Counted from the stretch's first letter, positions 25,004 through 52,713 are shown. The stretch is DNA of 64,000 nt from Nitrospiraceae bacterium (GCA_020356065.1 CP070632.1:58665-122664); one strand, 5' to 3'. Program-made: numbers and translations. The notes: generated by a model not told the origin, from the letters alone.

Positions 25004-26071
25004 TTACTCCGCAGAAGGATACGACCCGAGGACTTTAAGAAAGAGGCATTCCTTCTTTACATCTTTTATGGCCTTGCTTACTGCCCTGTCTTCTACATGT
25101 CCGGACATGTCAACAAAAAACAGGTATTCCCAGGCTTTTCTTCTTGAAGGTCGTGACTCGATTTTTGTCAGGTTAATCTTGTGTCTGGCAAAGGGTCTTA
25201 ACATCAAATACAGCGCACCCGGCTTATCCTTCAGAGACAGCATGATTGATGTCTTGTCCTTACCTGTCTTCCCCGGTGATTCCTTTGCTATTACAAGGAA
25301 ACGGGTATAATTTGCCTTATTATCTTCGATCCCCTTTTCAACGACCTTCAGATTATACACAGATGCCGCAAGCTCACTCGCGACTGCCGCAGCTGAAGGG
25401 TCCCGTGCTGCACGCCTTGCTGCTGCTGCCGTGCTGAGTTCTTCCAGGATAGGAACATGTGGATAGTTTCGATCCAGCCATGCCCGGCACTGGGCCCTTG
25501 GTTGAGGATGGGAATATATTTTCTTTATATTTTTTTTTAATCCGGTCTTTGACAGCAGATAGTGAGATATTGGTAGCATGACCTCAAAAGCGATTTTAAG
25601 GTCGAAATCAATAAACATGTCGAGTGTATAATTAATTACTCCTTCGGTGGAGTTTTCGATTGGTATTACACCATACTGCACATGTTCTCTCAGCACAGAC
25701 TCGAACACCTCTTTTATGGTACTTTCAGGAAGGTACTCGGAAGACGTTCCAAACTTCCTCCTTGCTGCTAAATGTGTGAATGTTGCTGACGGTCCCAGAT
25801 ACGCGACTTTTAAAGGTTGCTGCAAAGCCAGGGATGCTGATATTATTTCTTCATACACAAGTCTGAGCGTTTCATCAGGAAACGGCCCGGGGTTGAGCTT
25901 TTTCAGCCTTTTAAGGATTGCCCGTTCCCTTTCCGGAGAATGAATCTTCAGGCTCTTGTTCTGCTTGGTTTTTCCAACTTCCAGTGCGACCTCTGCTCGC
26001 TTATTCAAAAGGCCAAGGATCTGCTGATCTATTACATCAATTTCTTCCCGGAGTTTTTTCAGCTCTGACAT
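25004..26071 (-). CDS. pheA: Bifunctional chorismate mutase / prephenate dehydratase (P-protein) with ACT domain
   Basis: N-terminal chorismate mutase helix, a PDT domain and a C-terminal ACT domain. Confidence 0.85.
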   Translation of the reverse strand: MSELKKLREEIDVIDQQILGLLNKRAEVALEVGKTKQNKSLKIHSPERERAILKRLKKLNPGPFPDETLRLVYEEIISASLALQQPLKVAYLGPSATFTHLAARRKFGTSSEYLPESTIKEVFESVLREHVQYGVIPIENSTEGVINYTLDMFIDFDLKIAFEVMLPISHYLLSKTGLKKNIKKIYSHPQPRAQCRAWLDRNYPHVPILEELSTAAAARRAARDPSAAAVASELAASVYNLKVVEKGIEDNKANYTRFLVIAKESPGKTGKDKTSIMLSLKDKPGALYLMLRPFARHKINLTKIESRPSRRKAWEYLFFVDMSGHVEDRAVSKAIKDVKKECLFLKVLGSYPSAE

Positions 26072-26541
26072 AGTAATTAATGCTTCGGGTTAAAGGGTTA
26101 TCGCAGAAATATGTTGATGCTTAATTTAGCAATAAAAACAAGATTTTTCAAGACTTGAAGCAAGAACCTCTTGTTGTTTGGATACTCCTTCTATCATGTT
26201 GATCATGATCATTTATCAAAAATACAACTTATCAGCGGAGGTGCAAGTTGGATGAGTGACGGACTTGAATACCGTTTTTTATGACGAATAATCTGTGTGT
26301 ATAAAACATTACATTCTATGTATCAGTAAAGTCATTCAATTGCATGATTTTGCATACACAATCAGGGATTGTGCTCTGATAATTAATTTGTCATTATGAC
26401 AATTACATATTAATCAATTAGTTATAAGAGGCATAAATATAGGCATATTTATTGCTTCCAACTAATACACGCACTATGTGAAGCAATGGATGCGTACGTT
26501 CTTAAGCTCAATTTTCAGAAAATTTAAGGCATGGGAGTAAT

Positions 26542-27579
26542 ATGATCATAACAAACAAGAGAAGATCCAGACGGTTTGATCGTCCCTTTTTTGTCCAGTT
26601 CAGACAATTGAAGGGACTGGCTTCGTATTCACTGGGTATGACATCTAATATTTCAAGTGATGGATTTTGCTTTCAGTTTCAAAATATTGAGCTTAAGCAG
26701 GGTGATAACCTGGAATTCAAATTTAACAACCAGCAGACTAAACAGTCTGTTCATTTTTTTGGAGATGTGATGTGGACTCAGAAAAATGATATGAAATACA
26801 TCGCAGGTATAAGATTCTGCATGTCTGACAAGAAAAACAGAAAGAAAATGCTGAAAATTATATCTGACTTTTTTACAATTCCTTTGGATCAGTTGACTTA
26901 CAGGCATGATAAAAAATCGTCAGAGCATGTGAGAAGTAAAAAAGCAGTATCAGAAACGGATCAGGTGCACGGAAATTTATCAAGTTATTGGAAGCATATC
27001 ATAAAAAAAGGAATTAAAATATGCATGCATTTGGTTATATTAGCTGTGATCACCACTGCATTCGTGTTAGTTATGCCAGTATTGACCGAACAGTATGAGC
27101 ACCTGACGAAACCCCCTGTTGAATCGCATGTTCAAACTGTTGTTTATGATAATTCTGTTAATGATACGTCAAAATCAATGTCTGTACATCAGATAAGGGA
27201 TGCAATCAGAAGTGAATATGACGAATCAGAGAAATTATTTTTTGCAGATAAACATAGCGACTTGGAAGTAAAGAAAGGAAGCAGCAATGTAACTGCAATA
27301 GAGAAAGGAATGGAACTGACACATACTCAGCCGACACAAAGCGAATCAGAAAATTTTAAATTTTATGTTCAGGTCACATCTCCATACGACCCTGAGCATG
27401 CTTATGAAATGCTTTTAAAAATAAAAAATTATTATCCGGATGCGTTCCTGTTTAAGATAAATGACTATTATAAAATAAGAATTCCAGGAATAACGAGTGA
27501 AAAACAGGGGACAGAGGTCAATAAAGATCTGGAGGATAAGCTGAACGTCAAGTCTGTCTTAGTATACAGACTGAAATGA
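26542..27579 (+). CDS. PilZ domain - single transmembrane helix - SPOR domain protein
   Basis: PilZ motifs 'RRSRRFDR' (RxxxR) and 'NISSDG' ((D/N)xSxxG). Transmembrane helix 'ICMHLVILAVITTAFVLVMPVL'. C-terminal SPOR-like 'FYVQVTSPYDPEHAYEMLLKIK...YKIRIPG'. Confidence 0.55.
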   Translation: MIITNKRRSRRFDRPFFVQFRQLKGLASYSLGMTSNISSDGFCFQFQNIELKQGDNLEFKFNNQQTKQSVHFFGDVMWTQKNDMKYIAGIRFCMSDKKNRKKMLKIISDFFTIPLDQLTYRHDKKSSEHVRSKKAVSETDQVHGNLSSYWKHIIKKGIKICMHLVILAVITTAFVLVMPVLTEQYEHLTKPPVESHVQTVVYDNSVNDTSKSMSVHQIRDAIRSEYDESEKLFFADKHSDLEVKKGSSNVTAIEKGMELTHTQPTQSESENFKFYVQVTSPYDPEHAYEMLLKIKNYYPDAFLFKINDYYKIRIPGITSEKQGTEVNKDLEDKLNVKSVLVYRLK

Positions 27580-27892
27580 TAGCTGGTACGTGCCATACAA
27601 AATGGTATCGATTATGAGGGACCGATGTGATCCGTATGACAAATATCATGGTTTAATTTCTGAAATACGGGTAATTAATACTAAGAAAAGAAATAGGCAA
27701 TCAAAAGAGGGTGTTGATTGAAATAAAAAGTTCCTATCTACCCCCCCCACTAAGAGCTTGGACTTTTTATTTTCACGTTGTCCAAAGACATCAGTCAGCA
27801 TCCTCTTTTTCCTTTCTTTTAATCATCGATTAAATTCTTTAAGATCTGAGTTTTGCACATGAACATGCAATTAAGGAAGGAGATGTTCCGTA

Positions 27893-32270: not shown

Positions 32271-33791
32271 ATGCTGCTATATATATTTCTGGTTGTATAC
32301 TTTCTCATCCTGTTCACGGTTTTTGTTTATTCCTCCCACAGGTATTACATGGTGTATCTTTATTACAAACATCAGAAAGATAAACCTGTCCTTAAAAAGA
32401 AACTCGACAAGCTTCCCCAAGTGACCGTACAACTTCCAATTTATAACGAAATGTATGTCACCAGGAGATTGATACAGGCATCGTGTAATATTGACTACCC
32501 GGTTGAACTGCTCGAAATCCAGGTCCTGGATGATTCAACTGATGAGACGACTGAAGTGGCCCGCACATGCGTCGAGGAACTCAGAGCAAAAGGTTATGAC
32601 ATTCAATATATTCACAGGGAAAACAGAGCGGGCTTTAAAGGGGGTGCGCTTGCAAATGGACTGAAAACAGCGAAAGGTGAGTTTGTGGCAGTGTTTGATG
32701 CTGATTTCGTCCCCCAGAAGGACATTCTGAAGAAAACGATTCATTTCTTTGCGGACCCGACCGTGGGAATGGTACAGACCAGATGGTCCTATCTGAACAG
32801 GGCATATTCATTTCTGACAAGGATTCAGGCGATCATGCTTGACGGGCACTTTGTAATTGAACATACAGCAAGAAACTGGTCAGGGAGATTTTTTAATTTT
32901 AACGGTACAGCCGGCGTGTGGAGGAAAGAGGCCATTCAGACTGCAGGGGGCTGGCAGAATGATACGCTCACCGAAGACCTGGACCTGAGCTATAGATCAC
33001 AGCTTAAGGGATGGAAGTTTATATTTCTGAAAGATGAACTGTCACCGTCAGAAATTCCTGTTGAAATTAACGGTTTTAAAAGTCAGCAGCACAGGTGGGC
33101 AAAGGGATCGATACAGACAGCAAAAAAACTCCTCCCCCAATTATTGAAAAGCGATCTGCCCTTAAAAATTAAAGTCGAGGCTTTTTTTCATCTTACCAAT
33201 AATATTTCGTATCTGCTGATGCTGGTACTTTCGGTTTTAATATATCCTTCGATGGTTGCAAGAATCAACATCGGCTGGTTTCAGATGCTGGTTACCGACG
33301 TACCTTTCCTTTTATTTGCAACGGTCGGGATATCTTTCTTTTACACCTGTTCGCAGAGGGAGGCTTATAAAAACTGGAGGTCAAGAATTCTCTATCTTCC
33401 CATGCTCATGTCTCTCGGGATCGGGCTTTCCGTTAACAACTCAAAGGCTGTTCTAGAAGCGATCTTTAACAGACAGACAGAATTTAAACGGACCCCGAAA
33501 TACAGCATAGAAGCAAAAAAAGACAGCTGGCTTGGGAAGAAATACAGGGGAGAGATAAATTTTCTGGTTATCATGGAACTGCTGCTGGGTGTGTATTTCT
33601 CATTCAATATTTATTTTGCATTCATTAACAAGATTTATGTATCGATACCGTTTCTGATGATATTTCAGATGGGATATTTTTATGTTGCCTTTCTCTCGAT
33701 TTTTCAAGTAATATTAAACGCCATAACTTCGAACAGACTGGCACGCCACATTATTTCAAAAAGAAACACGGAAGACGTCATTGCTGCTTAG
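32271..33791 (+). CDS. Membrane-embedded processive family-2 glycosyltransferase (cellulose/chitin/PNAG-synthase-like)
   Basis: DxD 'DDSTDET', 'DADF', and the 'QQHRWAKG' QxxRW processivity motif. N- and C-terminal transmembrane helices. No C-terminal PilZ. Confidence 0.7.
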   Translation: MLLYIFLVVYFLILFTVFVYSSHRYYMVYLYYKHQKDKPVLKKKLDKLPQVTVQLPIYNEMYVTRRLIQASCNIDYPVELLEIQVLDDSTDETTEVARTCVEELRAKGYDIQYIHRENRAGFKGGALANGLKTAKGEFVAVFDADFVPQKDILKKTIHFFADPTVGMVQTRWSYLNRAYSFLTRIQAIMLDGHFVIEHTARNWSGRFFNFNGTAGVWRKEAIQTAGGWQNDTLTEDLDLSYRSQLKGWKFIFLKDELSPSEIPVEINGFKSQQHRWAKGSIQTAKKLLPQLLKSDLPLKIKVEAFFHLTNNISYLLMLVLSVLIYPSMVARINIGWFQMLVTDVPFLLFATVGISFFYTCSQREAYKNWRSRILYLPMLMSLGIGLSVNNSKAVLEAIFNRQTEFKRTPKYSIEAKKDSWLGKKYRGEINFLVIMELLLGVYFSFNIYFAFINKIYVSIPFLMIFQMGYFYVAFLSIFQVILNAITSNRLARHIISKRNTEDVIAA

Positions 33792-33866
33792 CGGGCATGT
33801 ATGAAAAGATCCGGAAGCGGAATAAATAATATTTTATTAAATCTAATTCTAAAGGAGAGCGTAATT

Positions 33867-34904
33867 ATGAAGAAGATTTTGTTGGTGGCTTTCTTGTTAA
33901 TCACAGCATTGATTTTTACAGCTGGTGATGCCTTTTCTGCATGGACACAGCCCAAAGGATATGCTTACAATCAATTATCCTTCAGTTATTACAAAACGAA
34001 TGAGAAATGGACAACATTAGGACTCAACGCCGATGGTGAGGTCATTGACCTGGATGTTGATGTGGAAAAGACCGATACTGAAGATTTTACCTCTACAAAG
34101 ATTTCCTACTACAGTGAGTACGGAATAATTGATAAACTGACCATATTCTATTCATTTGGATATGACTGGCAGAAATCTGATGATGTTCAGAAATTCACAG
34201 ATGAAAACGGTCCGAGTGGCATAGGAGATATAGATCTTGGATTACGATATCATCTCATGGACAATATCGCGGGAACCGGCATTCTGTCGTCAGCACAGGT
34301 GAAACTAAAAATTCCTGAGGCGTATGATTATGGTAACCCAGTTACAAAACTCAGTCTTGGAGACGGCCAGTATGATGCTACGTTTGCACTGTTGTTTGGA
34401 AGAGGCTTCAGCAAGGGATATGCATGGCTTAACGCAGGCTATAAGTACAGGTTTGAAAATAAAGAGCATGATCCTATTACGTTCAAGCCGTCTGACCAGG
34501 TCAAGGTTTCCTTTGGCGGCGGGTATCCTCTTTTATCATGGTTGTCAATAGGAGGCCTTGTTGACTGGACCAAGTCTGTCGGCAATGCAGAAGTGTCAGA
34601 TGAACTATTAATAGCCAATTATCCAGCCGGGGGAAAAACTTGGCATGGTGATACTGTAGTTATTAAAGACTCCCTTGGCCTTGAGCCGAGCGCCCTGAGT
34701 CTTGGTGTTGATCTGATCTTTGATATATCCAAGTTTGTACCGGTTATGAAGGAAACATTCCCGAGCAAATCAATTGTCTTTTCTTTTGTAACGGATGTGG
34801 CCGGTTTCGGACCTTTTAAAACCGAGGATTACTCTCTCGGCAGGACGTACAGCGTTGCTTTTGTATTTCCGGGTAAGGGTTTTTTCCCGGTCAACCTGTT
34901 CTAA
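33867..34904 (+). CDS. Outer-membrane β-barrel protein (putative exopolysaccharide export porin)
   Basis: Signal peptide 'MKKILLVAFLLITALIFTAGDAFSA' after an AAAGGAGAG ribosome-binding site. Alternating amphipathic strands. C-terminal '...FPVNLF' terminal-Phe β-barrel signature. The ORF-track start at 33801 is probably too long. Confidence 0.5.
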   Translation: MKKILLVAFLLITALIFTAGDAFSAWTQPKGYAYNQLSFSYYKTNEKWTTLGLNADGEVIDLDVDVEKTDTEDFTSTKISYYSEYGIIDKLTIFYSFGYDWQKSDDVQKFTDENGPSGIGDIDLGLRYHLMDNIAGTGILSSAQVKLKIPEAYDYGNPVTKLSLGDGQYDATFALLFGRGFSKGYAWLNAGYKYRFENKEHDPITFKPSDQVKVSFGGGYPLLSWLSIGGLVDWTKSVGNAEVSDELLIANYPAGGKTWHGDTVVIKDSLGLEPSALSLGVDLIFDISKFVPVMKETFPSKSIVFSFVTDVAGFGPFKTEDYSLGRTYSVAFVFPGKGFFPVNLF

Positions 34905-34951
34905 ACGCTGTTCATTCGTTTCCGGTGATTATCCGGACTTGACGATCTTTT

Positions 34952-34996
34952 ATAAATTTTATCCCGACCCTTACATAGGATCGGGATAAAATTTAT
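34952..34996 (+). promoter_or_regulatory. Perfect 16-bp inverted repeat ATAAATTTTATCCCGA / TCGGGATAAAATTTAT with 13-nt loop, between the OMP and TPR genes
   Basis: Seen directly. Either an intercistronic terminator/attenuator or a protein-binding palindrome. Confidence 0.4.
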
Positions 34997-35053
34997 CTGC
35001 AAATTACGAAGCTGTCAGGTATATACCTTAGTGTCAGTTCAGGATGTGCACAC

Positions 35054-35665
35054 ATGAACATAAAAAAGGTTCTCCCTCTGCTCATCATAATCTCTGTTTC
35101 GAGCGTTCTTGCTCTTTATATGTATCATCACAGATACACGCTTACTGCTCTATTTTACCAGACATTCCGGGAGCAGAACAGGGCGATCGATAACTTCAAG
35201 ATGGCCATAGAACGTGATCAGGGAAATGTGTATGCATATTATCAGCTTGGATTAATATATAAGGAAAGAAAAGAGTATGCCAAGGCCGAGAATATATATC
35301 TGAAGCTGTTAGATCTGGCCCCTGAGCATCCCTTTGCCAATTATGATCTGGGATTCATATATCGGGAGCTGAAATTATTTCAAAAAGCGATGAGGCATTA
35401 CGAGAAGGCTCTGGAGATAGATCCACGGAATACATACGCACTATCTGATATTGGATATATTTACAAGGAGCAGGGTATGTATGGTAAAGCTGTTGTCCAG
35501 TTTGAGAAGGTCCTCGCAATTGAACCTGACCATAAATATGCCTTATGGGACATTGCCGAGGTCTATGAAAGGATGGGGATGAAAGAACGGGCTGACGAAC
35601 AATACAAATATTATCACGAAAGGACGGACTGCAGTTTCACAAAAGTCTGGAATTGTTTTGATTGA
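35054..35665 (+). CDS. TPR-repeat protein with N-terminal signal-anchor
   Basis: Four to five TPR units, e.g. 'AYYQLGLIYKERKEYAKAENIYLKLLDLAPEHP'. The stop codon directly abuts the next gene's start. Confidence 0.75.
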   Translation: MNIKKVLPLLIIISVSSVLALYMYHHRYTLTALFYQTFREQNRAIDNFKMAIERDQGNVYAYYQLGLIYKERKEYAKAENIYLKLLDLAPEHPFANYDLGFIYRELKLFQKAMRHYEKALEIDPRNTYALSDIGYIYKEQGMYGKAVVQFEKVLAIEPDHKYALWDIAEVYERMGMKERADEQYKYYHERTDCSFTKVWNCFD

Positions 35666-37666
35666 TTGAATATTATTTCCTATATCCTCATAAATCTGCT
35701 GCTTTTTTCTTCCTGGTACACATTCCTATTTAACAAGAGGGGATTCATACCTTTTGTTGACCGGCTCATTGGGACTTCTGTATTTGCCCTGACACAGATA
35801 ATATTGACTGAAATGTTCCTTGGGGTTTTATTTAAAGCACTCTACAGTTCAAGCCTGCTGTCTCTTAATCTGATTATATCCATGACAGTATTGACATATT
35901 CCCTCCGCTTCGGGAGTGTCACTGCAGGAACTCCTCTTTCAGTTTATATAATATCGGTCTTTGTTGAGCTGGGAGAAAAGAGCAAACGGTTTTTCAGTAT
36001 CATTGGCAATGACATTATATTAACTTTAATATTCAGTCTTTTTTGCATTTTAATCGGCTGGATGATTTTCATTGCATATCTTTTCCCTTCGTATACGTGG
36101 GATGCTCTGTGGTACCATCTCCCGATAGTCGGGTATATCATGCAGAATGGAGCTGTCCAGGAGCTTGCCAACAACTCATTTATAGAGCAGTTTATAAATA
36201 TTTTTCCGAAAAACATAGAGTTGTTCTTCCTCTGGAACATAATATTTCTTAAAAGCGATGTCTTGATTGATCTGAGCCAGATGTTATTTACACTGGTCGG
36301 GGTATTAGCAGTGTTCAGTATGGCAATAAAACTTGAAATTCGGGAAGAGTACGCTATGTACGCTGCTTTATTGTTTTTCTTTACACCGGTTATTATTCTA
36401 CAGTCCACAACCAACTATGTAGATATTGCTATTTCTGTTTTATTTCTTGCCGCCCTGAATTTTTTAATCAGCAACTGCGAGCTGACGTCCTGGAACAGTG
36501 TGATGGTAATTAACAATATTAAGCAGAGAAAAATGTTTCTGCTTCTGGGAGGACTGACTACAGGCATACTGCTTGGTGCAAAGGGATCAGGCCCGTTGTT
36601 CCTTGTCATACTCTCTGCACTGGTCATGATACAGAAAGTAAGGAAATATATGGCTTATACTCGGAATCCGGACATGTTAAAGGAATACATAGCCCGGAAA
36701 GTTATGAAATCATATCTCATATATTTTATTGTCCCGGCTGTCATGATGGGAGGGTACTGGTATATGAAGAACTGGGTTTTATATGACAATCCGGTATATC
36801 CAATGGATGTGTCAATCATGGGCAAGGTATTGTTCAAGGGTTTATATAAGGATATGATTGAGCCGGTCCCGGATACCATTAAAAAGCTTTCTTTCTTTGC
36901 AAGACCAATATATGTCTGGATGGAACATATTGAATTTTATTTATATGATTCCAGGCTCGGCGGTTTGGGACCCATATGGTTTATTCTTTTTATTCCCAGC
37001 CTGGTTTTTTCAACTTTACATGCTCTGAAAAACAGAAAATATCAATTCCTTGCTGTTGTGGCTATTATTATGACAGGTTTTTTTATCTATCCACGACACT
37101 GGACGCCAAGATATGTAATATTTATTGTAGGACTGGGTGCGCTGTCATTTGCATATATTATGGACTTCTTTTATGTTAGAGACAGAATAATCAGACTAAT
37201 CGTGCTTTTGCTTACCGCATATACATTTTTAACGGTCAATTCCCCGTGCGTTACTCCTGCACAAATTAAACATTTCGTCAATCTTCCTGCCAGTGAAAGG
37301 ACGATTGCGCGTCATGCTCCATATAATATAGATATACATGCCCGGCAGGAATACGGACACTGGATCTGGATAAGTGATAACATAAAGACAGGTGAAACTT
37401 TGGCCTATACATTTGAACCATTGTTCCTCTCGCCATTATGGAACAGCGGATTTTCAAACTCTATTATATATATTAAAGCAGAATCATATAATGAATGGTT
37501 AAAGGATCTGGAGATGAACATGGTCTCATATGTACTTGTAAGAACAAAATCTAAAGAGGACAAATGGGTAGAGGCCAGTTATTCCCTTATCTGGATGGGG
37601 ATGAGGGAAAGGTTTAACGTTGAATATGCTGACGATCATTACAAAATCATAAGGTTTTTAAAGTGA
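35666..37666 (+). CDS. Large polytopic membrane protein, putative GT-C-fold glycosyltransferase (PMT/ArnT/YfhO-like)
   Basis: At least 11 transmembrane helices followed by a roughly 150-aa C-terminal soluble domain. Paired with a DPM1-like GT2 downstream. Assignment is by architecture only. Confidence 0.35.
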   Translation: MNIISYILINLLLFSSWYTFLFNKRGFIPFVDRLIGTSVFALTQIILTEMFLGVLFKALYSSSLLSLNLIISMTVLTYSLRFGSVTAGTPLSVYIISVFVELGEKSKRFFSIIGNDIILTLIFSLFCILIGWMIFIAYLFPSYTWDALWYHLPIVGYIMQNGAVQELANNSFIEQFINIFPKNIELFFLWNIIFLKSDVLIDLSQMLFTLVGVLAVFSMAIKLEIREEYAMYAALLFFFTPVIILQSTTNYVDIAISVLFLAALNFLISNCELTSWNSVMVINNIKQRKMFLLLGGLTTGILLGAKGSGPLFLVILSALVMIQKVRKYMAYTRNPDMLKEYIARKVMKSYLIYFIVPAVMMGGYWYMKNWVLYDNPVYPMDVSIMGKVLFKGLYKDMIEPVPDTIKKLSFFARPIYVWMEHIEFYLYDSRLGGLGPIWFILFIPSLVFSTLHALKNRKYQFLAVVAIIMTGFFIYPRHWTPRYVIFIVGLGALSFAYIMDFFYVRDRIIRLIVLLLTAYTFLTVNSPCVTPAQIKHFVNLPASERTIARHAPYNIDIHARQEYGHWIWISDNIKTGETLAYTFEPLFLSPLWNSGFSNSIIYIKAESYNEWLKDLEMNMVSYVLVRTKSKEDKWVEASYSLIWMGMRERFNVEYADDHYKIIRFLK

Positions 37667-37904
37667 TGAATATAAAAGACAGGCGGGACTAATATTATTT
37701 TCTGTTTATAATATGCATAGCTGTTCTTGCATTCTATTATTTCACCATGTAGGAAAGAGCGGCCTTTATAAAGCAGCAGTTAATATGGTGGTGAGAGTTT
37801 TTTAGATAGTAACATGAATTATGCAAAATATATGAATGAGTTAACTCGAAAAAGTTTCTATAATCTTCAGGAGTTAAGGTGTCAAGGATTCAAGGAGTAC
37901 AGTT

Positions 37905-37962
37905 AGAAGTCGCTTGATTCCTGGGATTTCGAAGCGAGTCTACGCAAGAGTCGCTACGACCT
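37905..37962. repeat. Intergenic repeat copy C (TTCGAAGCGAGTCTACGC / GAGTCGCTACGACC palindromic core)
   Basis: Shares the TCGAAGCGA and GCGTAGACTC / GAGTCTACGC segments with copy B. Seen directly. Confidence 0.3.
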
Positions 37963-37998
37963 GTAATTCCATTTCTAACTAAATGTGAGAAATAAATC

Positions 37999-38691
37999 AT
38001 GCTTGATGACAAAAAAATAGCTGTCATCATACCGGCCTTAAATGAAGAATCCACACTTCCTCTTGTGTTGAAAGATATATCAAGAGAGCTGGTGGATGAA
38101 ATAGTTGTTATTGATAACGGCAGCAGTGACAGGACCGCTGTAATAGCAAGAAATGCCGGGGCAACAGTCCTTCATGAAACCAAAAAGGGTTACGGATATC
38201 CCTGTCTGAAAGGAATTGAACACATCAAAACCAGCAGGGCAGATGTTCTGGTCTTTGTAGATGGCAATTACAGTGATCACCCTGATGAAATCATGAATCT
38301 GGTAGAACCGATAGTAAGAAATGATTATGATCTTGTTCTTGGATCCAGAACTCTTGGACAGGCTGAAGAAGGATCATTAAGGGTGCCTGTACGATTTGGA
38401 AACTGGCTTGCTACAGTCCTGATCAGCCTTTTTTATAATTATAAATACAGTGATGTTGGTCCATTCAGGGCGATTAAATTTGACAGGCTTCTTGACCTTG
38501 ATATGCATGATAACCTCGGATGGACAATCGAGATGCAGGTAAAAGCCGTCAGGAGAAAATACAGGATAACCGAAGTGCCTGTCAGTTACCGGACTGGAAC
38601 GGGAAAGTCAAAGTTAACGGGAAATATAAGGGGCATTGCTGTTGTTGGATACAGGATAATCAGGGCTATACTTAAAAATCTTTTTTACTAG
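37999..38691 (+). CDS. Family-2 glycosyltransferase, DPM1/GtrB-like polyprenyl-phosphate sugar synthase (soluble form)
   Basis: 'IAVIIPALNEE', 'VIDNGSSDRT' and 'DGNYSDHPDE' (DxD). 230 aa. Confidence 0.75.
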   Translation: MLDDKKIAVIIPALNEESTLPLVLKDISRELVDEIVVIDNGSSDRTAVIARNAGATVLHETKKGYGYPCLKGIEHIKTSRADVLVFVDGNYSDHPDEIMNLVEPIVRNDYDLVLGSRTLGQAEEGSLRVPVRFGNWLATVLISLFYNYKYSDVGPFRAIKFDRLLDLDMHDNLGWTIEMQVKAVRRKYRITEVPVSYRTGTGKSKLTGNIRGIAVVGYRIIRAILKNLFY

Positions 38692-47740: not shown

Positions 47741-49363
47741 TTGCTTAACCTGACATTAAAAAATATTGCTCACAAAGAAGACTTTTCTGCACAGAAAGAT
47801 GTTTCATTGAGAGATGTAACGGAATTAATGAATAAAAATGGAAAAGGTGTTGTTGTCATCCTTGATGGTAAGAAAATTGCGGGCATTCTTACCGAAAGGG
47901 ACATAGTGAAATGCCTTCACAAGGGAATAGATCTGGATACTAATGTTACGGGTTTTGCCGATAAAAAACTTGTTGCGACAAGAGGAGACAGAACAGTCGG
48001 ATATGCACTATCCCTTATGATAGAAAATAATATCAGACGTATAATCATTACAGACGGGTTCCTGGATGAATTTATTGGAGTTGTTACACAGCAGGATTTG
48101 CTGAAATATCTTGAAGAGGATTTTTACCGAGCAACCATCAAAGTCAAACATATCATAGACCGATTGGGGCATTTGTTTAACGTGGAACCTGATGACTCAC
48201 TGAAAAGTGTTCTGGATCAGATGGTTGGAAATCAAATAAGTGCGGTTGCCATCATCAGTGACGGTGTAGCTGAGGGAATTATCTCTGAGAAAGACATATT
48301 GCGATTGGCCTGTGAAAATATATCTCTTGACAGCAGAGTTCATGAACATATGTCAACCCCGGTGATCAATGTACATCTCGATAATGCGCTTGTCGACATT
48401 GTGACCATAATGAATGAATTGCAGATCAATAGAGTTATCGTACATGATGACAGCGGTATCGCTACCAATGTCATTACCACGAGAGATGTGTTGAAAAGCC
48501 TGGAGAGTGATTATAGTGCATTCCTTGAGCGCAAACTGAGGAGTGCCAAGGAAATTCTTAACCTTTTGCCGGAAATGATGGTAGAAATAGCTGAAACCGA
48601 GTCTGACCAGTTAATTGTGTGGGCAAACGATAAGGTGACGAGGAAGTTCGGCATGGACCTCCTTGACCAGCCGATAACTGAGTTTCTGCCCAGGGAGCAG
48701 TGGCATAAGATTTACACAACACTGAGAGACTCGGGGAAAGTAGAAAATATAAAAATGAAGAAGGGAGACAGCATTCTTGAGCTTTCCGGGTTTTATCTGA
48801 ACGTTGACAGTAATCAGAATAATGGAAAAATCCAGCTCATTATCAGAGATATCACGGATGATATACGATTGTCTACTTCTGACCCCTTGACAGGTTTATA
48901 TAACAGACGGTTTGTGAATGAATATTTAATAAAGGAGATCGCACGATTTAAAAGGTCGAACGAATCTTTTTCACTTGTGATGTGTGACATTGATAACTTC
49001 AAGGAGATAAATGACACGTACGGCCATTTGGCCGGTGATATAGTTCTTAAGTCATTGGCACAGCTTGTCACTCCTACGTTAAGGCAGCTTGATATCTTCG
49101 GCAGATACGGCGGCGATGAGTTTGTTTTAATTCTGCCCGGGACGGACAGTACATTTGCCTCAAATGTAATTGACAGACTGAGGATAAAAATAGAAAGCAT
49201 TCCAATAGCTCTTCCCGCAGGAGTAAAAAAATCTATAACTGCCAGTTTTGGTGTTGCAACATTTCCGATGGACGGAGAATCTTCAGATGATCTGCTGATC
49301 AAGGCCGATGAGCGATTATATAAGGCGAAGAGTCTTGGAAAAAACAAGGTTGTCTTTGTATGA
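47741..49363 (+). CDS. Diguanylate cyclase: 4xCBS - PAS - GGDEF, with I-site
   Basis: 'RYGGDEF' active site preceded by an RxxD I-site 'RQLD'. CBS pairs at the N-terminus. Confidence 0.85.
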   Translation: MLNLTLKNIAHKEDFSAQKDVSLRDVTELMNKNGKGVVVILDGKKIAGILTERDIVKCLHKGIDLDTNVTGFADKKLVATRGDRTVGYALSLMIENNIRRIIITDGFLDEFIGVVTQQDLLKYLEEDFYRATIKVKHIIDRLGHLFNVEPDDSLKSVLDQMVGNQISAVAIISDGVAEGIISEKDILRLACENISLDSRVHEHMSTPVINVHLDNALVDIVTIMNELQINRVIVHDDSGIATNVITTRDVLKSLESDYSAFLERKLRSAKEILNLLPEMMVEIAETESDQLIVWANDKVTRKFGMDLLDQPITEFLPREQWHKIYTTLRDSGKVENIKMKKGDSILELSGFYLNVDSNQNNGKIQLIIRDITDDIRLSTSDPLTGLYNRRFVNEYLIKEIARFKRSNESFSLVMCDIDNFKEINDTYGHLAGDIVLKSLAQLVTPTLRQLDIFGRYGGDEFVLILPGTDSTFASNVIDRLRIKIESIPIALPAGVKKSITASFGVATFPMDGESSDDLLIKADERLYKAKSLGKNKVVFV

Positions 49364-49528
49364 AGCAAATCGCACCCAATCGTACCTCTTGTTACATCAT
49401 ATCAAGCTGAGATTCTTCTGTGATAAGAGTCCATGTATATCACTGTGGTACCGGGCTAAACATATTCATCGAAAATGCCGATTTATAATCAGGAGTTAAA
49501 ATGAAATGCCATTAATACGGAAGGGACT

Positions 49529-51535
49529 ATGTTAGAAGAGGATAAAAGACAATTTGCCCGGTACCGAAAACAGTCATTATGTGATGTAAGAATAGGGTCA
49601 GAACTCCATAAAGGAAAAGTCGTTGATTACTCAAACGGTGTTGGGATACTCATAAAAAAAGTTCCGGAACTGGTAAAAGGTGCCATTGCTGAAATAGAAA
49701 TTTTAGACTATGAAATTAAATTCAGCGGCGAAGTGGTGTGGACAGAAGATTTTGGATATCAGCTCAGAGTCGGATTCAGAAGGCTCAACAACCTGAGGGG
49801 CAATCTTAAACATTACAGACTGATTGACATCCTTTTAGGTCTCAGCAAGAGCAGAAAAACGGGAATACTTGAGATAATCGTAGGTTCGACAGTAAAAAAG
49901 ATATATATTGACAATGGACTGAAGATTTTTGCTGTATCTACAAATACAAATGACCGCCTCGGAGAGTATCTTTTAACACAGGGTAAAATTACCCTTGAAG
50001 AATATAATCAGGCCTCTTACCTCGTTGAAAAAAAGGGACAGCGACTGGGTCAGGTTCTTATCGATCTTGGTTATTTAAAACCGAGTGATCTTGCCCCGTC
50101 AGTCCAACATCAGGTTGAAGAGATTATTATGGGCCTCTTTAATATAGATGAAGGCATATTTGAATTTAAAGAAGTCCCGCTCCCAACGGATGAACCAATA
50201 AAACTCCAAGTCAGCACGCCAAATCTCATATACAAGGGAATCAAGAGAATTAACAGCTTTCCCATGATAGATAAGATGTGTCCACCATTAGATACAGTAT
50301 TTAATCTGGCCAAGGACCCGCTCCCGCTGTTTCAGTCGCTCGACATTTTGGATGCCGATAAAAAAGTCCTATCGTATGTGAACGGAATCCATCCACTAAA
50401 AGGGATATTAACCCTTTCTCATACAAGTAATTTTGAGACACTTAAATCTGTTATCGCCCTTATGACCATAGGACTCATTACTATCAAGGGAGAAAATGAC
50501 ACTCCTGTTAAACTTCCCCTTGAAGTGATCTTTGGCGAACCTGACAAAACTCAACCGGTGGAACCAGATGAAGAGACACAGGAAGAGGTAACGACTGATA
50601 TTGGTGCAGGAGCTGCTGAAATGACAGACACTCAAACGAATATTGTTGAGAAACAGGAGAACGTTAAAGAACCCACAAAAGAGGAAGAGTCGGCAGTACC
50701 AGCATTGCCTGAAGCTCCCGCGTCTGAAATAACTGATGAAGATTCACATGACGATGAATCGGCTGATGTGAATGCAGAAGCCACTGAATGGGCAGTTGAA
50801 TATACGAATATGGTCGAGAATCAGGAGAACATGAAAGCGTCTGATGAGGAGGAATTGGCGATATCAACACCGCCTGAAGTTCCTGTTTCTGAAATAAATG
50901 AAGATACACATTCAGAAGAGATGGCTTCATTACGCGCAGAGAGTGCTGAAGAGACAATCGAACATGTGAAAACAAGTGAGAGCATCAGTAAAATGAATGT
51001 GATATCAGAGTCACACCTGTCTTTTATAGATGAGCATGATGAGATACAGGCTGAGAATATTACTGAACAGACAGATGAAAAACAATCCATTACATACACA
51101 GCAGGTTATGTCAATGAAACATCCGGAGTTCCTGAACCTGCTGCCATGGAGTCAGAAATGGCGGCTGCAGCAGGAGAGGAAGCATACGTACAGATGAATG
51201 ATATGACGTCTGAAAACACATCAACTGACGTGCTGCCGAACACTGTTCTGCAAAATGACGAAAGTGCTGACACTGCAGCAAAACCGAAGTCCAGAAAAAT
51301 ACTCATCATCTCAATTGTTATGATAATCATTCTTGTTGGAGCCATTGTTCCGATCATTTATGAATATATTACAATGCCATTATCTCCACCTGCCGTGACA
51401 ACTATAAAAAAATCTGAGTCTTTATCACCTGTGAACAATGAGGCATCAGAAAAAGTGAATGCAGGAATGCCGCAAGACAAATCATCATTCCCTGTCTTTC
51501 GGGAGGATGCAATAAAAAAGTTTCTCAACGAGTAA
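49529..51535 (+). CDS. PilZ - DUF4388 - acidic repeat linker - transmembrane helix protein (putative c-di-GMP receptor)
   Basis: 'RQFARYR' (RxxxR) plus 'DYSNGVG'. DUF4388-like 'LIDILLGLSKSRKTGILEI'. E/S/T-rich repeat. Transmembrane helix 'ILIISIVMIIILVGAIVPII'. Confidence 0.6.
   Translation: MLEEDKRQFARYRKQSLCDVRIGSELHKGKVVDYSNGVGILIKKVPELVKGAIAEIEILDYEIKFSGEVVWTEDFGYQLRVGFRRLNNLRGNLKHYRLIDILLGLSKSRKTGILEIIVGSTVKKIYIDNGLKIFAVSTNTNDRLGEYLLTQGKITLEEYNQASYLVEKKGQRLGQVLIDLGYLKPSDLAPSVQHQVEEIIMGLFNIDEGIFEFKEVPLPTDEPIKLQVSTPNLIYKGIKRINSFPMIDKMCPPLDTVFNLAKDPLPLFQSLDILDADKKVLSYVNGIHPLKGILTLSHTSNFETLKSVIALMTIGLITIKGENDTPVKLPLEVIFGEPDKTQPVEPDEETQEEVTTDIGAGAAEMTDTQTNIVEKQENVKEPTKEEESAVPALPEAPASEITDEDSHDDESADVNAEATEWAVEYTNMVENQENMKASDEEELAISTPPEVPVSEINEDTHSEEMASLRAESAEETIEHVKTSESISKMNVISESHLSFIDEHDEIQAENITEQTDEKQSITYTAGYVNETSGVPEPAAMESEMAAAAGEEAYVQMNDMTSENTSTDVLPNTVLQNDESADTAAKPKSRKILIISIVMIIILVGAIVPIIYEYITMPLSPPAVTTIKKSESLSPVNNEASEKVNAGMPQDKSSFPVFREDAIKKFLNE
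50641..50960 (+). repeat. Degenerate tandem duplication of about 162 bp (54 aa) inside the acidic linker of the PilZ-DUF4388 gene
   Basis: 'IVEKQENVKEP...PEAPASEITDEDSHD' against 'MVENQENMKAS...PEVPVSEINEDTHSE'. Confidence 0.6.
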
Positions 51536-51583
51536 CCGGTAAATTAATATATTTTTATTCGTTTATAGAATTATTTATCATTA

Positions 51584-51702
51584 CCCCTCTGTATCTCCCT
51601 TCGGAATCGGGTCGTACCGGCTTCGCAATGAGTCACATCGAACTGGCACAGAGGGGGTTTGAATTCTCCCCTTAACGAGCCGGTCCGACCCGATTCCGAG
51701 AC
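51584..51702. repeat. Highly structured intergenic element with nested inverted repeats: a roughly 25-bp imperfect pair (13-bp perfect core CGGAATCGGGTCG / CGACCCGATTCCG) plus CCCCTCTGT / ACAGAGGGG
   Basis: Seen directly. Located between convergent genes. No ORF. Confidence 0.4.
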
Positions 51703-51801
51703 CTGCTTAGGGATGGCCTTGGCGCGGTGATCTTTTGAAATTTCAAGTCACTAAAAACCCTTACCATAATGGCAGGTATTTTTAGTGTTCAACGTACATT
51801 A

Positions 51802-52713
51802 TTAATTAATGATCGCAAGAAGTTGATTCGAGGTCTTTTTATCGATATTCTTTATTTTGAGGTATATATCCATGGCCTTATCTTTATTGTCGTTCTTTGC
51901 ATATGTAATGCACAGACCCGTCAGGGCATCTAAATGCCCTGGATCAAGACGTAAGGCATTGTTAAACGCATCAATTGCCTCATCATACCTTTTAAGAAAA
52001 AAGTACGAATACCCGAGACCATTATGAAACTCCGGGATGTCCGGGGACAGCCGTGTGGCTTTTTCAAGGTATCCCCGGGCCTCTGAAGGTTTATCCATCT
52101 TCAGAAGGACCATTCCGAACCATGCGTTAAGGTCAGGGTGATCCGGCTGTTGTCTTATTTCCGCAGTTATAATATCAAACGCAGCAGTATAATCATTATT
52201 CTTGACAAGAGTCTCAATTTCTTTCAGGTTCTCCTTTAATCGCACATCTCTGACATTTTTGTCCTCATCTTCAGATGCAATGGAAACAGCTTGGTCAAGG
52301 GCAGGGGATGCAGATGATCTGTCCCCAGGCTCTTTCATTTTCACAGTGGATGAATCGGAATAAAGCTTCACGATCCTTTCCTCTTTTATATATGCTTTCA
52401 TCACAACAGCACTGGGTAGTTTTGATTCGACCGAACTGAAGAATTTCTCAACCAAATTATAATCCGTAAATTTACCCAGTCTGACAGAGTAGTATTTGCC
52501 GATTTTCTCTATTCTTAAATGGTCCAGTTGAGTTTCATCCAAAGTATTTGCAATCGAATCAAACTGCTCCTGTGCATCGTTCACATTTGAAAAGCTGCTT
52601 ACCTGAATTGTATGAAACAGGTTCGATGAATAAACTTTCAGAGGTAACAGCATTAAGAACAAGAATAAGGTTGCATATCCTGCTGCAGATACATTAAAGA
52701 CATTTTTTCGCAT
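51802..52713 (-). CDS. SPOR domain + TPR repeat protein with N-terminal signal-anchor
   Basis: SPOR-like 'IQVSSFSNVNDAQEQ...YYSVRLGKF'. C-terminal TPRs 'AWFGMVLLKMDKPSEARGYLEKATRLSPD'. Confidence 0.6.
   Translation of the reverse strand: MRKNVFNVSAAGYATLFLFLMLLPLKVYSSNLFHTIQVSSFSNVNDAQEQFDSIANTLDETQLDHLRIEKIGKYYSVRLGKFTDYNLVEKFFSSVESKLPSAVVMKAYIKEERIVKLYSDSSTVKMKEPGDRSSASPALDQAVSIASEDEDKNVRDVRLKENLKEIETLVKNNDYTAAFDIITAEIRQQPDHPDLNAWFGMVLLKMDKPSEARGYLEKATRLSPDIPEFHNGLGYSYFFLKRYDEAIDAFNNALRLDPGHLDALTGLCITYAKNDNKDKAMDIYLKIKNIDKKTSNQLLAIIN

Follow-up and report, generated by a model that had tools for sequence, protein, structure and literature searches.

A predicted PilZ-transmembrane-SPOR protein of a Nitrospiraceae bacterium, a candidate cyclic di-GMP receptor located at septal peptidoglycan

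The 64,000-nucleotide stretch of Nitrospiraceae DNA analyzed here (GCA_020356065.1; CP070632.1:58665-122664; referred to below as the window) contains a gene for a 345-residue protein that joins an N-terminal PilZ domain, a single transmembrane (TM) helix and, at the C-terminus, a SPOR domain (Table 1). It is a real and conserved gene that is under selection. Orthologues that align over the full length with 47-54% identity occupy the same syntenic slot in three related metagenome-assembled genomes (MAGs) of the Thermodesulfovibrionia, and the coding region is hence not a chance open reading frame (ORF). In these assemblies, the cmk-aroA-tyrA-hisC-pheA genes are found on one side, and genes for an oxidoreductase, a rhodanese, an ArsR-type protein and a family 2 glycosyltransferase (GT2) on the other; a search for related loci recovered two close MAG loci only. 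The gene is monocistronic and stands alone between the divergently oriented pheA and the convergently oriented oxidoreductase gene. A protein with 100% identity to its product is present in the NCBI database, where it lies on a 3.17-Mb contig and is labeled 'PilZ domain-containing protein [Nitrospiraceae bacterium]'.

This protein forms part of a recurrent family and is not a singleton. A profile search against 1.84 billion cluster representatives yielded 322 matches at E<=1e-3, and among the 153 sequences considered further (the 150 matches listed, together with those found earlier) 45 possess the full order of PilZ domain, TM helix and SPOR-type C-terminus; these 45 sequences are the family to which the counts given below refer. 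Hence, the PilZ-TM-SPOR order is present in at least 45 clusters formed at 50% identity.

The initial reading of this locus from its sequence alone (the sequence-only reading) had placed a PilZ domain with both signature motifs at the N-terminus, and this assignment holds. The Pfam model PF07238 matches residues 5-105 with 36.6 bits, compared with a gathering score of 22.5, and it matches every one of the 45 family members. Both motifs associated with the binding of cyclic di-GMP (c-di-GMP) are present, RRSRR at residues 7-11 and NISSDG at residues 36-41. In the family alignment, R7 and R11 are each found in 41 of the 42 rows without a gap, while N/D36 and G41 are kept in all 45 sequences and S38 in 41. 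As the two motifs are near-invariant in proteins that are otherwise only 18-54% identical, their pattern fits purifying selection on ligand binding. The full-length AlphaFold2 model places strands between residues 10 and 92 and helices at residues 97-111 and 115-118, the six-stranded β-barrel with a C-terminal helix that is expected of a PilZ protein, with values for the predicted local distance difference test (pLDDT) of about 60-76 in the barrel. When this model was compared with the PDB by Foldseek, the top matches (about 37) were nearly all PilZ proteins, many of them solved with c-di-GMP, and included VCA0042/PlzD, BcsA, MrkH, MotI, YcgR, PA2989, Alg44 and MapZ.

Sequence searches reach the solved PilZ structures only barely. 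The single sequence returned nothing but spurious matches from the PDB, and the profile of the family PilZ domains gave a weak match to YpfA/MotI (E 0.06); the identity of the domain therefore rests on the Pfam match and the fold search. Such a weak reach is usual for a divergent PilZ domain. Taken as a whole, the N-terminus forms a canonical PilZ domain with both c-di-GMP motifs intact, and it is predicted to bind the nucleotide.

Directly behind the barrel, a helix and a short tail (residues 96-118) are conserved about as strongly as the barrel itself, with 2.27-2.28 bits per alignment column compared with 2.42 for the barrel among 32 family members. This segment runs past the Pfam PilZ match and constitutes a signature of the family; it is a candidate for an output or partner-binding element. 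The profile of the PilZ domains also matches a fragment of FliM over this segment (7dma, E 0.009), a match that is probably spurious.

The remainder of the cytoplasmic portion is a basic linker, again as proposed by the sequence-only reading, with nine Lys/Arg and five Asp/Glu residues between positions 111 and 158, pLDDT values below 50 at residues 121-148, and a length that ranges from 18 to 174 residues across the family. It leads into the sole hydrophobic segment with a mean Kyte-Doolittle value above 1.6 (residues ~160-182, peak 2.62). The 15 residues on the N-terminal side of this helix contain four Lys/Arg and no acidic residues, those on the C-terminal side one Lys/Arg and three Asp/Glu residues; the same positive bias of the N-terminal flank is present in 36 of the 45 relatives, with seven ties. 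An N-terminal signal peptide is absent, and 29 Lys/Arg residues are distributed over the 159 positions ahead of the helix. Hydropathy and flank charges thus agree with the earlier proposal of a cytoplasmic PilZ domain, and they predict a bitopic inner-membrane protein whose SPOR domain, positioned C-terminal to a single helix with a positively charged N-flank, is extracytoplasmic. This N-in/C-out arrangement is also the only orientation that would bring the PilZ domain together with c-di-GMP and the SPOR domain together with peptidoglycan. Between the membrane and the SPOR domain lies an acidic, Ser/Thr-rich linker (17 Asp/Glu and nine Lys/Arg residues; pLDDT below 50 at residues 179-281), which is probably disordered and contains a QTxxYDN motif (residues 198-204) that is conserved in the close orthologues only.

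The C-terminus is a SPOR domain, as the sequence-only reading had suspected, by the scores of the orthologues, by profile search and by fold, and not by its own Pfam score; the Pfam scan of the whole 345-residue protein returned no SPOR match at E<=10. The equivalent region in three orthologues, 58-62% identical to that of the window protein, scores 22.7, 26.8 and 26.4 bits with the SPOR model PF05036 and thus above its cut-off of 21, and 37 of the 45 family members are matched at E<=0.01 (best E 2.7e-10). A profile built from only five close C-termini found no match in the PDB, while the profile built from all 45 C-termini retrieved the SPOR domain of CwlC first (E 8e-4) and that of FtsN second (E 2e-3, 63 aligned columns), with RlpA and DedD following more weakly and lower in the ranking. 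An AlphaFold2 model of residues 268-345, computed with the 45-member alignment (pLDDT 88.9, predicted template modeling score 0.76), shows the RNP-like β-α-β-β-α-β order. In a Foldseek comparison with the PDB, its nearest solved neighbors are SPOR domains, namely those of RlpA (TM-scores of 0.68-0.76, including the complex with denuded glycan, 6i09) and CwlC (0.73), whereas generic ferredoxin-like folds reach TM-scores of only 0.4-0.55.

SPOR domains bind 'denuded' glycan strands that are produced by cell-wall amidases at the constricting septum, and to our knowledge every characterized SPOR domain binds denuded glycan. In the E. coli FtsN protein, mutation of any of five residues, among them Q251, S254, W283 and R285, lowers septal localization, and in the RlpA complex the SPOR glutamine touches both N-acetylmuramic acid (MurNAc) and N-acetylglucosamine (PMC6895207). 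The four named FtsN residues align with Q277, S280, Y309 and K311 of the window protein, so that four of the five, including the key glutamine, are kept in identity or in kind. The glycan-contact glutamine is present in 44 of the 45 family members, position 280 is always Ala, Ser or Thr, and position 313 is Arg or Lys in 38 of the 45 sequences.

In 41 of the 45 family members, no more than 15 residues follow the SPOR domain, and the two linkers vary in length (medians of 78 and 81 residues). Some variants append OmpA, SH3 or TPR modules; one 642-residue protein (P0027), for instance, carries an OmpA-family peptidoglycan-binding domain behind the SPOR domain. All named members originate from the Thermodesulfovibrionia (Nitrospirota) or from Candidatus Mariimomonas; most members are derived from metagenomes. 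Protein searches with the profile of the C-terminal domain and with the full family alignment gave one and 15 matches, respectively, in a search limited by its word index, and scarcely added to the taxonomy. The metagenomic members are labeled 'DedD', 'cell division septation protein DedD' or 'hypothetical' in the IMG database, and precomputed annotations show both Pfam domains on some family members. In public records, the label is 'PilZ domain-containing' or 'DedD', but rarely both.

A further three metagenomic proteins possess a PilZ domain of the family type (E ~1e-18 with the family hidden Markov model) and a TM helix, followed by a different SPOR subtype. They were recovered by a metagenome scan seeded with a second SPOR protein of the window, the SPOR-TPR protein listed in Table 1; two of the three ORFs (those on L041 and L042) gave identical results. 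Their SPOR domains score 20.5 and 18.5 bits with the Pfam model, are about 46% identical to that of the SPOR-TPR protein, and follow the pattern 'YTIQ..S...LRIEKIGKYY.LRLGKF', while BLASTP detects no similarity between this subtype and the SPOR domain of the PilZ-TM-SPOR protein. Since the pairing of PilZ and SPOR has been built from two distinct SPOR lineages, the combination itself appears to be under selection. The second subtype is abundant in the metagenome loci L019-L048, where it occurs in many architectures, including proteins of 300-870 residues with a signal peptide and an N-terminal SPOR domain and lipoprotein-like proteins with a C-terminal one; these observations point to a lineage-specific expansion of SPOR proteins.

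Table 1. Features of the PilZ-TM-SPOR locus and of related loci; positions are those of the window unless another locus is named.
Feature	Position	Strand	Remarks
pheA	25004-26071	-	divergent from the PilZ-TM-SPOR gene, 470-bp spacer between
Shine-Dalgarno-like GGGAG	26533..26537	+	4 nt 5' of the ATG; read from the sequence
PilZ-TM-SPOR gene, whole	26542..27579	+	ATG-initiated ORF, 345 aa and stop
PilZ domain (aa 5-105), predicted β-barrel for c-di-GMP binding in the cytoplasm	26554..26856	+	Pfam PF07238
RxxxR c-di-GMP motif (R7-R-S-R-R11)	26560..26574	+	motif scan
(D/N)xSxxG c-di-GMP motif (N36-I-S-S-D-G41)	26647..26664	+	motif scan
Conserved helix and tail behind the barrel (aa 96-118; S108, [IV]113-P114-x-D116-x-[FL]118)	26827..26895	+	per-column information
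Cytoplasmic linker, basic and poorly conserved (aa 119-159)	26896..27018	+	charge counts, pLDDT
Single TM helix (aa 160-182), predicted N-in/C-out	27019..27087	+	Kyte-Doolittle
Acidic, Ser/Thr-rich periplasmic linker (aa 183-272, ~90 residues)	27088..27357	+	charge counts, pLDDT
SPOR domain (aa ~273-345), predicted to bind denuded peptidoglycan glycan in the periplasm	27358..27576	+	family homology, profile, fold
Fe-S/molybdopterin oxidoreductase, 1091 aa	27893-31168	-	convergent with the PilZ-TM-SPOR gene
Exopolysaccharide-like cluster	32271-38691		~4.7 kb downstream of the PilZ-TM-SPOR gene
CBS-CBS-PAS-GGDEF diguanylate cyclase	47741-49363	+	
668-aa protein: PilZ, DUF4388, MshE-like c-di-GMP motif, acidic low-complexity region, C-terminal TM helix	49529-51535	+	
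Signal-anchored SPOR-TPR protein	51802-52713	-	SPOR 24.1 bits, TPR repeats; convergent with the 668-aa PilZ-DUF4388 gene
P0027 variant, 642 aa: PilZ, TM, SPOR, OmpA-family domain	L009 5940-7868		
PilZ-TM-SPOR protein, second SPOR subtype	L029 78-1145		
PilZ-TM-SPOR protein, second SPOR subtype	L041 2815-3927		
PilZ-TM-SPOR protein, second SPOR subtype	L042 2580-3692		

The layout originally proposed for this protein, a cytoplasmic PilZ domain, one TM helix and an extracytoplasmic C-terminal SPOR domain, is correct in every part. The domain identities and their order, the single TM helix, the retention of ligand-contacting residues in the PilZ and the SPOR domain alike and the repeated occurrence of the arrangement have all been computed, and we hold the architecture as such with high confidence. 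From the conserved residues and the known behavior of the two domain families, we infer that the protein binds c-di-GMP and is targeted to the septum. We suggest that it is a septal protein in the style of DamX, DedD and FtsN whose cytoplasmic end serves as a c-di-GMP receptor, and we assign a probability of roughly 0.6 to this statement together with its mechanism. The SPOR domain would bind amidase-denuded glycan and thereby concentrate the protein where the septum constricts and at the nascent poles, as is the case for FtsN, DamX and DedD, while the PilZ domain would read the cytoplasmic level of c-di-GMP at the division site. Binding of the nucleotide may then alter the contact with a cytoplasmic partner via the conserved post-barrel segment; candidates for such a partner are a component of the divisome or a protein bound for the new pole. 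Overall, the c-di-GMP status of the cell would thereby be coupled to cytokinesis or to the identity of the new pole.

DamX, DedD and FtsN, the bitopic SPOR division proteins of E. coli, possess the same overall topology as the PilZ-TM-SPOR protein, and its likeness to FtsN extends to the fold of the SPOR domain and to the residues in contact with glycan. Outside the SPOR fold, however, there is no sequence similarity to any of the three. The cytoplasmic part is a PilZ domain here, whereas FtsN has a short FtsA-binding peptide and DamX a cytoplasmic domain of its own. A scan with the NCBIfam models (E<=10) found no match of the protein to those for FtsN, DedD or DamX, and it is not a member of these three families. 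In RlpA (6i05/6i09/6i0n) and CwlC (1x60) the SPOR domain is attached to cell-wall enzymes, a lytic transglycosylase and an amidase, respectively, and not to a signaling receptor as is the case here; the sequence identity of these SPOR domains to that of the PilZ-TM-SPOR protein is only 11-17%.

Scattered hints of a role in division are found in the neighborhoods of individual family members. One member (P0029) is located directly downstream, and on the same strand, of a complete tolQ-tolR-tolA-tolB-pal-cpoB-like cluster (L006 2014-8041), and tolQRAB-pal-cpoB encodes a division-associated envelope machine. Another member is found near divIVA and yggT, and a further one near the gene for an SLT-LysM transglycosylase. 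The OmpA-bearing variant (L009) has in its vicinity genes for NamZ, for a stand-alone PilZ protein of 100 residues, and for a fusion of a nucleotidyltransferase and a kinase (NTP_transferase and APH) that may be involved in MurNAc or peptidoglycan recycling.

Several points weigh against the septal reading. No gene neighbor is conserved across the family members examined, and a search for a conserved operon partner among the distant members found none, so that no partner can be named. The isolated C-terminus of the window protein scores 13.7-15.1 bits with the Pfam SPOR model and is thus below the cut-off. Its SPOR domain is atypical in having T279 and P281 in place of the Gly and Trp found in most family members, replacements that are probably the reason for the low score; the close orthologues share this deviation, with Thr or Ala at position 279 and Pro or Leu at position 281. 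The periplasmic linker contains no motif that is conserved throughout the 45-member family and none that resembles the essential (E) domain that follows the TM helix in FtsN; the QTxxYDN motif of the close orthologues is unlike this domain as well. The full-length AlphaFold2 model is of low confidence (mean pLDDT 50.6). Organism names, and with them the taxonomic range on record, are confined to the Thermodesulfovibrionia members. Finally, the support for c-di-GMP binding, peptidoglycan binding and localization is wholly computational.

The same architecture could also serve a wall-anchored c-di-GMP receptor unrelated to division, in which the SPOR domain is a mere peptidoglycan tether and the PilZ domain regulates an envelope machine such as pili, flagella, a secretion system or an exopolysaccharide apparatus. 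Machines for motility and polysaccharides are commonly under the control of PilZ receptors, and the nearest solved folds are those of YcgR, MotI, BcsA and Alg44; the OmpA domain of the P0027 variant is a general peptidoglycan anchor, a CheX gene is present nearby in this locus, and the neighborhoods of the family vary and are mostly not related to division. Nevertheless, we consider this explanation unlikely, given the almost complete retention of the glycan-contact glutamine and the fact that no pilus, flagellar or secretion gene recurs beside the family members examined.

It is less plausible still that the protein is simply the DedD- or DamX-like division protein of this lineage, with a PilZ fold that has ceased to bind c-di-GMP and functions as a protein-interaction module only. 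The topology of DamX and DedD and the DedD labels of several family members in IMG agree with such a view, and non-binding PilZ domains do exist, examples being Xanthomonas PilZ structures found further down in the ranking of the fold search. The near-invariance of both c-di-GMP motifs within so divergent a family speaks against the loss of binding, however, as does the lack of a match to the NCBIfam DedD, DamX and FtsN models.

Alg44, the alginate co-polymerase of Pseudomonas aeruginosa, likewise consists of an N-terminal cytoplasmic PilZ domain (4rt0, among the fold matches), a single TM helix and a periplasmic domain, and in both proteins cytoplasmic c-di-GMP sensing would be passed to an envelope-facing module. 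In Alg44, however, this module resembles membrane-fusion proteins and the gene is part of an exopolysaccharide synthase operon, whereas here it is a SPOR domain and the gene stands alone; the Pfam scan of the PilZ-TM-SPOR protein found no HlyD or membrane-fusion-protein match, and the protein is not Alg44-like beyond the PilZ-TM layout. That it acts as a c-di-GMP-activated inner-membrane partner of the exopolysaccharide-like gene cluster downstream is very improbable: a GT2 synthase-like gene is indeed located about as far away in the window as in two close relatives (L001 and L002), but the opposite-strand oxidoreductase gene and a rhodanese gene (in the relatives also an ArsR gene) intervene, and the cluster is positioned outside of the transcription unit and is absent around the distant family members. 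The cluster comprises genes for a GT2 synthase-like protein (506 residues), a 367-residue ORF, a TPR protein (203 residues), a 666-residue ORF and a second GT2 protein (230 residues); the 367- and 666-residue ORFs have no Pfam match.

Some properties of the locus may be recorded alongside this interpretation. The PilZ-TM-SPOR gene and its flanking spacers (26072-27892) have a G+C content of 32-36%, compared with 42% for the window and 45% for pheA. A recent horizontal transfer was considered and rejected, as the syntenic orthologues share the offset (35-36% versus 40-41%); the low G+C content is thus a stable property of the gene. Between positions 26000 and 27950, five terminator-like sites, each a hairpin followed by a T-run, were found where 1.0 +/- 0.8 are expected; two of them are located on the plus strand within the PilZ coding region (26570-26584 and 26732-26751), and one is located in the upstream spacer (26361-26380). 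This enrichment may merely reflect the AT-rich composition. A scan of the flanking intergenic regions with Rfam found no credible riboswitch or other RNA element, and the frequency of promoter-like sites around the gene is not above chance. The neighboring oxidoreductase is a single-chain fusion of a 4Fe-4S dicluster subunit (Fer4_11) and the catalytic subunit of a molybdopterin oxidoreductase; the same fusion is found in L002 (1052 residues), while the homologue in L001 (951 residues) lacks a Fer4_11 match. A TM-SPOR protein without a PilZ domain (P0005), which might have been taken for a natural split of the two halves, was rejected as such: it is part of a full-length homologue (L001 5650-6690, MAG GCA_947259595.1) that is interrupted by a single in-frame TGA at codon 105 and is therefore called as a 104-residue PilZ ORF and a 229-residue TM-SPOR ORF. 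A nonsense mutation or an error in the assembly accounts for the TGA codon; recoding is less likely.

A second locus that combines c-di-GMP and SPOR functions is formed by three adjacent genes of the window (47741-52713), which encode a diguanylate cyclase, a PilZ-DUF4388 protein and the SPOR-TPR protein. The sequence-only reading had pointed to the latter as a second SPOR protein nearby; it exists at the position given, but it is encoded about 24 kb away and on the minus strand. In L013, the only close relative with enough flanking sequence, a PilZ-DUF4388 gene (75% identical) is again convergent beside a SPOR-TPR gene (61% identical), and the trio may represent an unfused counterpart of the PilZ-TM-SPOR fusion. 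The two PilZ domains of the window are not recent paralogues, a possibility that was rejected on the basis of their 28% identity over 43 residues (E 0.004).

What is known of c-di-GMP in cell division mostly concerns signal-making enzymes, and little is known about receptors at the septum. The DmxA protein of Myxococcus xanthus, YfiN/DgcN of E. coli and PFLU5608 of P. fluorescens place c-di-GMP signaling at the septum; these proteins make c-di-GMP, however, and reach the septum via transmembrane domains or contacts with the divisome, whereas the PilZ-TM-SPOR protein is a receptor by its domain content and would be recruited through septal peptidoglycan. The authors of the DmxA study postulate an unidentified c-di-GMP effector or landmark at the nascent poles 'which possibly binds peptidoglycan' (PMC11255338). 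The PilZ-TM-SPOR family joins the two properties of such an effector, a c-di-GMP receptor domain and a domain predicted to bind septal peptidoglycan, in one polypeptide. We tentatively raise a more specific form of the septal reading, one that is possible but rather doubtful at present: the protein may be a c-di-GMP-gated landmark of the septum or the new pole, whose SPOR domain parks on amidase-made glycan and whose PilZ domain and tail recruit or release a cytoplasmic partner only when the level of c-di-GMP rises. Such a partner might belong to the divisome, or it might be a factor for polarity or motility.

The sequence-only reading had described the architecture as one that is not commonly reported, an assessment that holds. 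Full-text searches of the literature found no paper on a PilZ-SPOR fusion, although it may be listed in a review or in the architecture tables of InterPro; the arrangement is thus recurrent in, and visible to, the databases and yet, as far as can be told, unstudied. The candidate is well defined and testable, even though neither domain is new, its function is an inference and its hosts have not been cultured. If our interpretation is correct, the family would extend the SPOR division proteins by a new class and would also add a new class to the outputs of PilZ receptors, and it would offer a first handle on cell-cycle signaling in the mostly uncultured Thermodesulfovibrionia. Should the more specific landmark function apply as well, the family would be the kind of peptidoglycan-binding c-di-GMP effector that has been postulated for c-di-GMP bursts at the division site, and it would connect a second messenger directly with cytokinesis or pole identity in the Nitrospirota.

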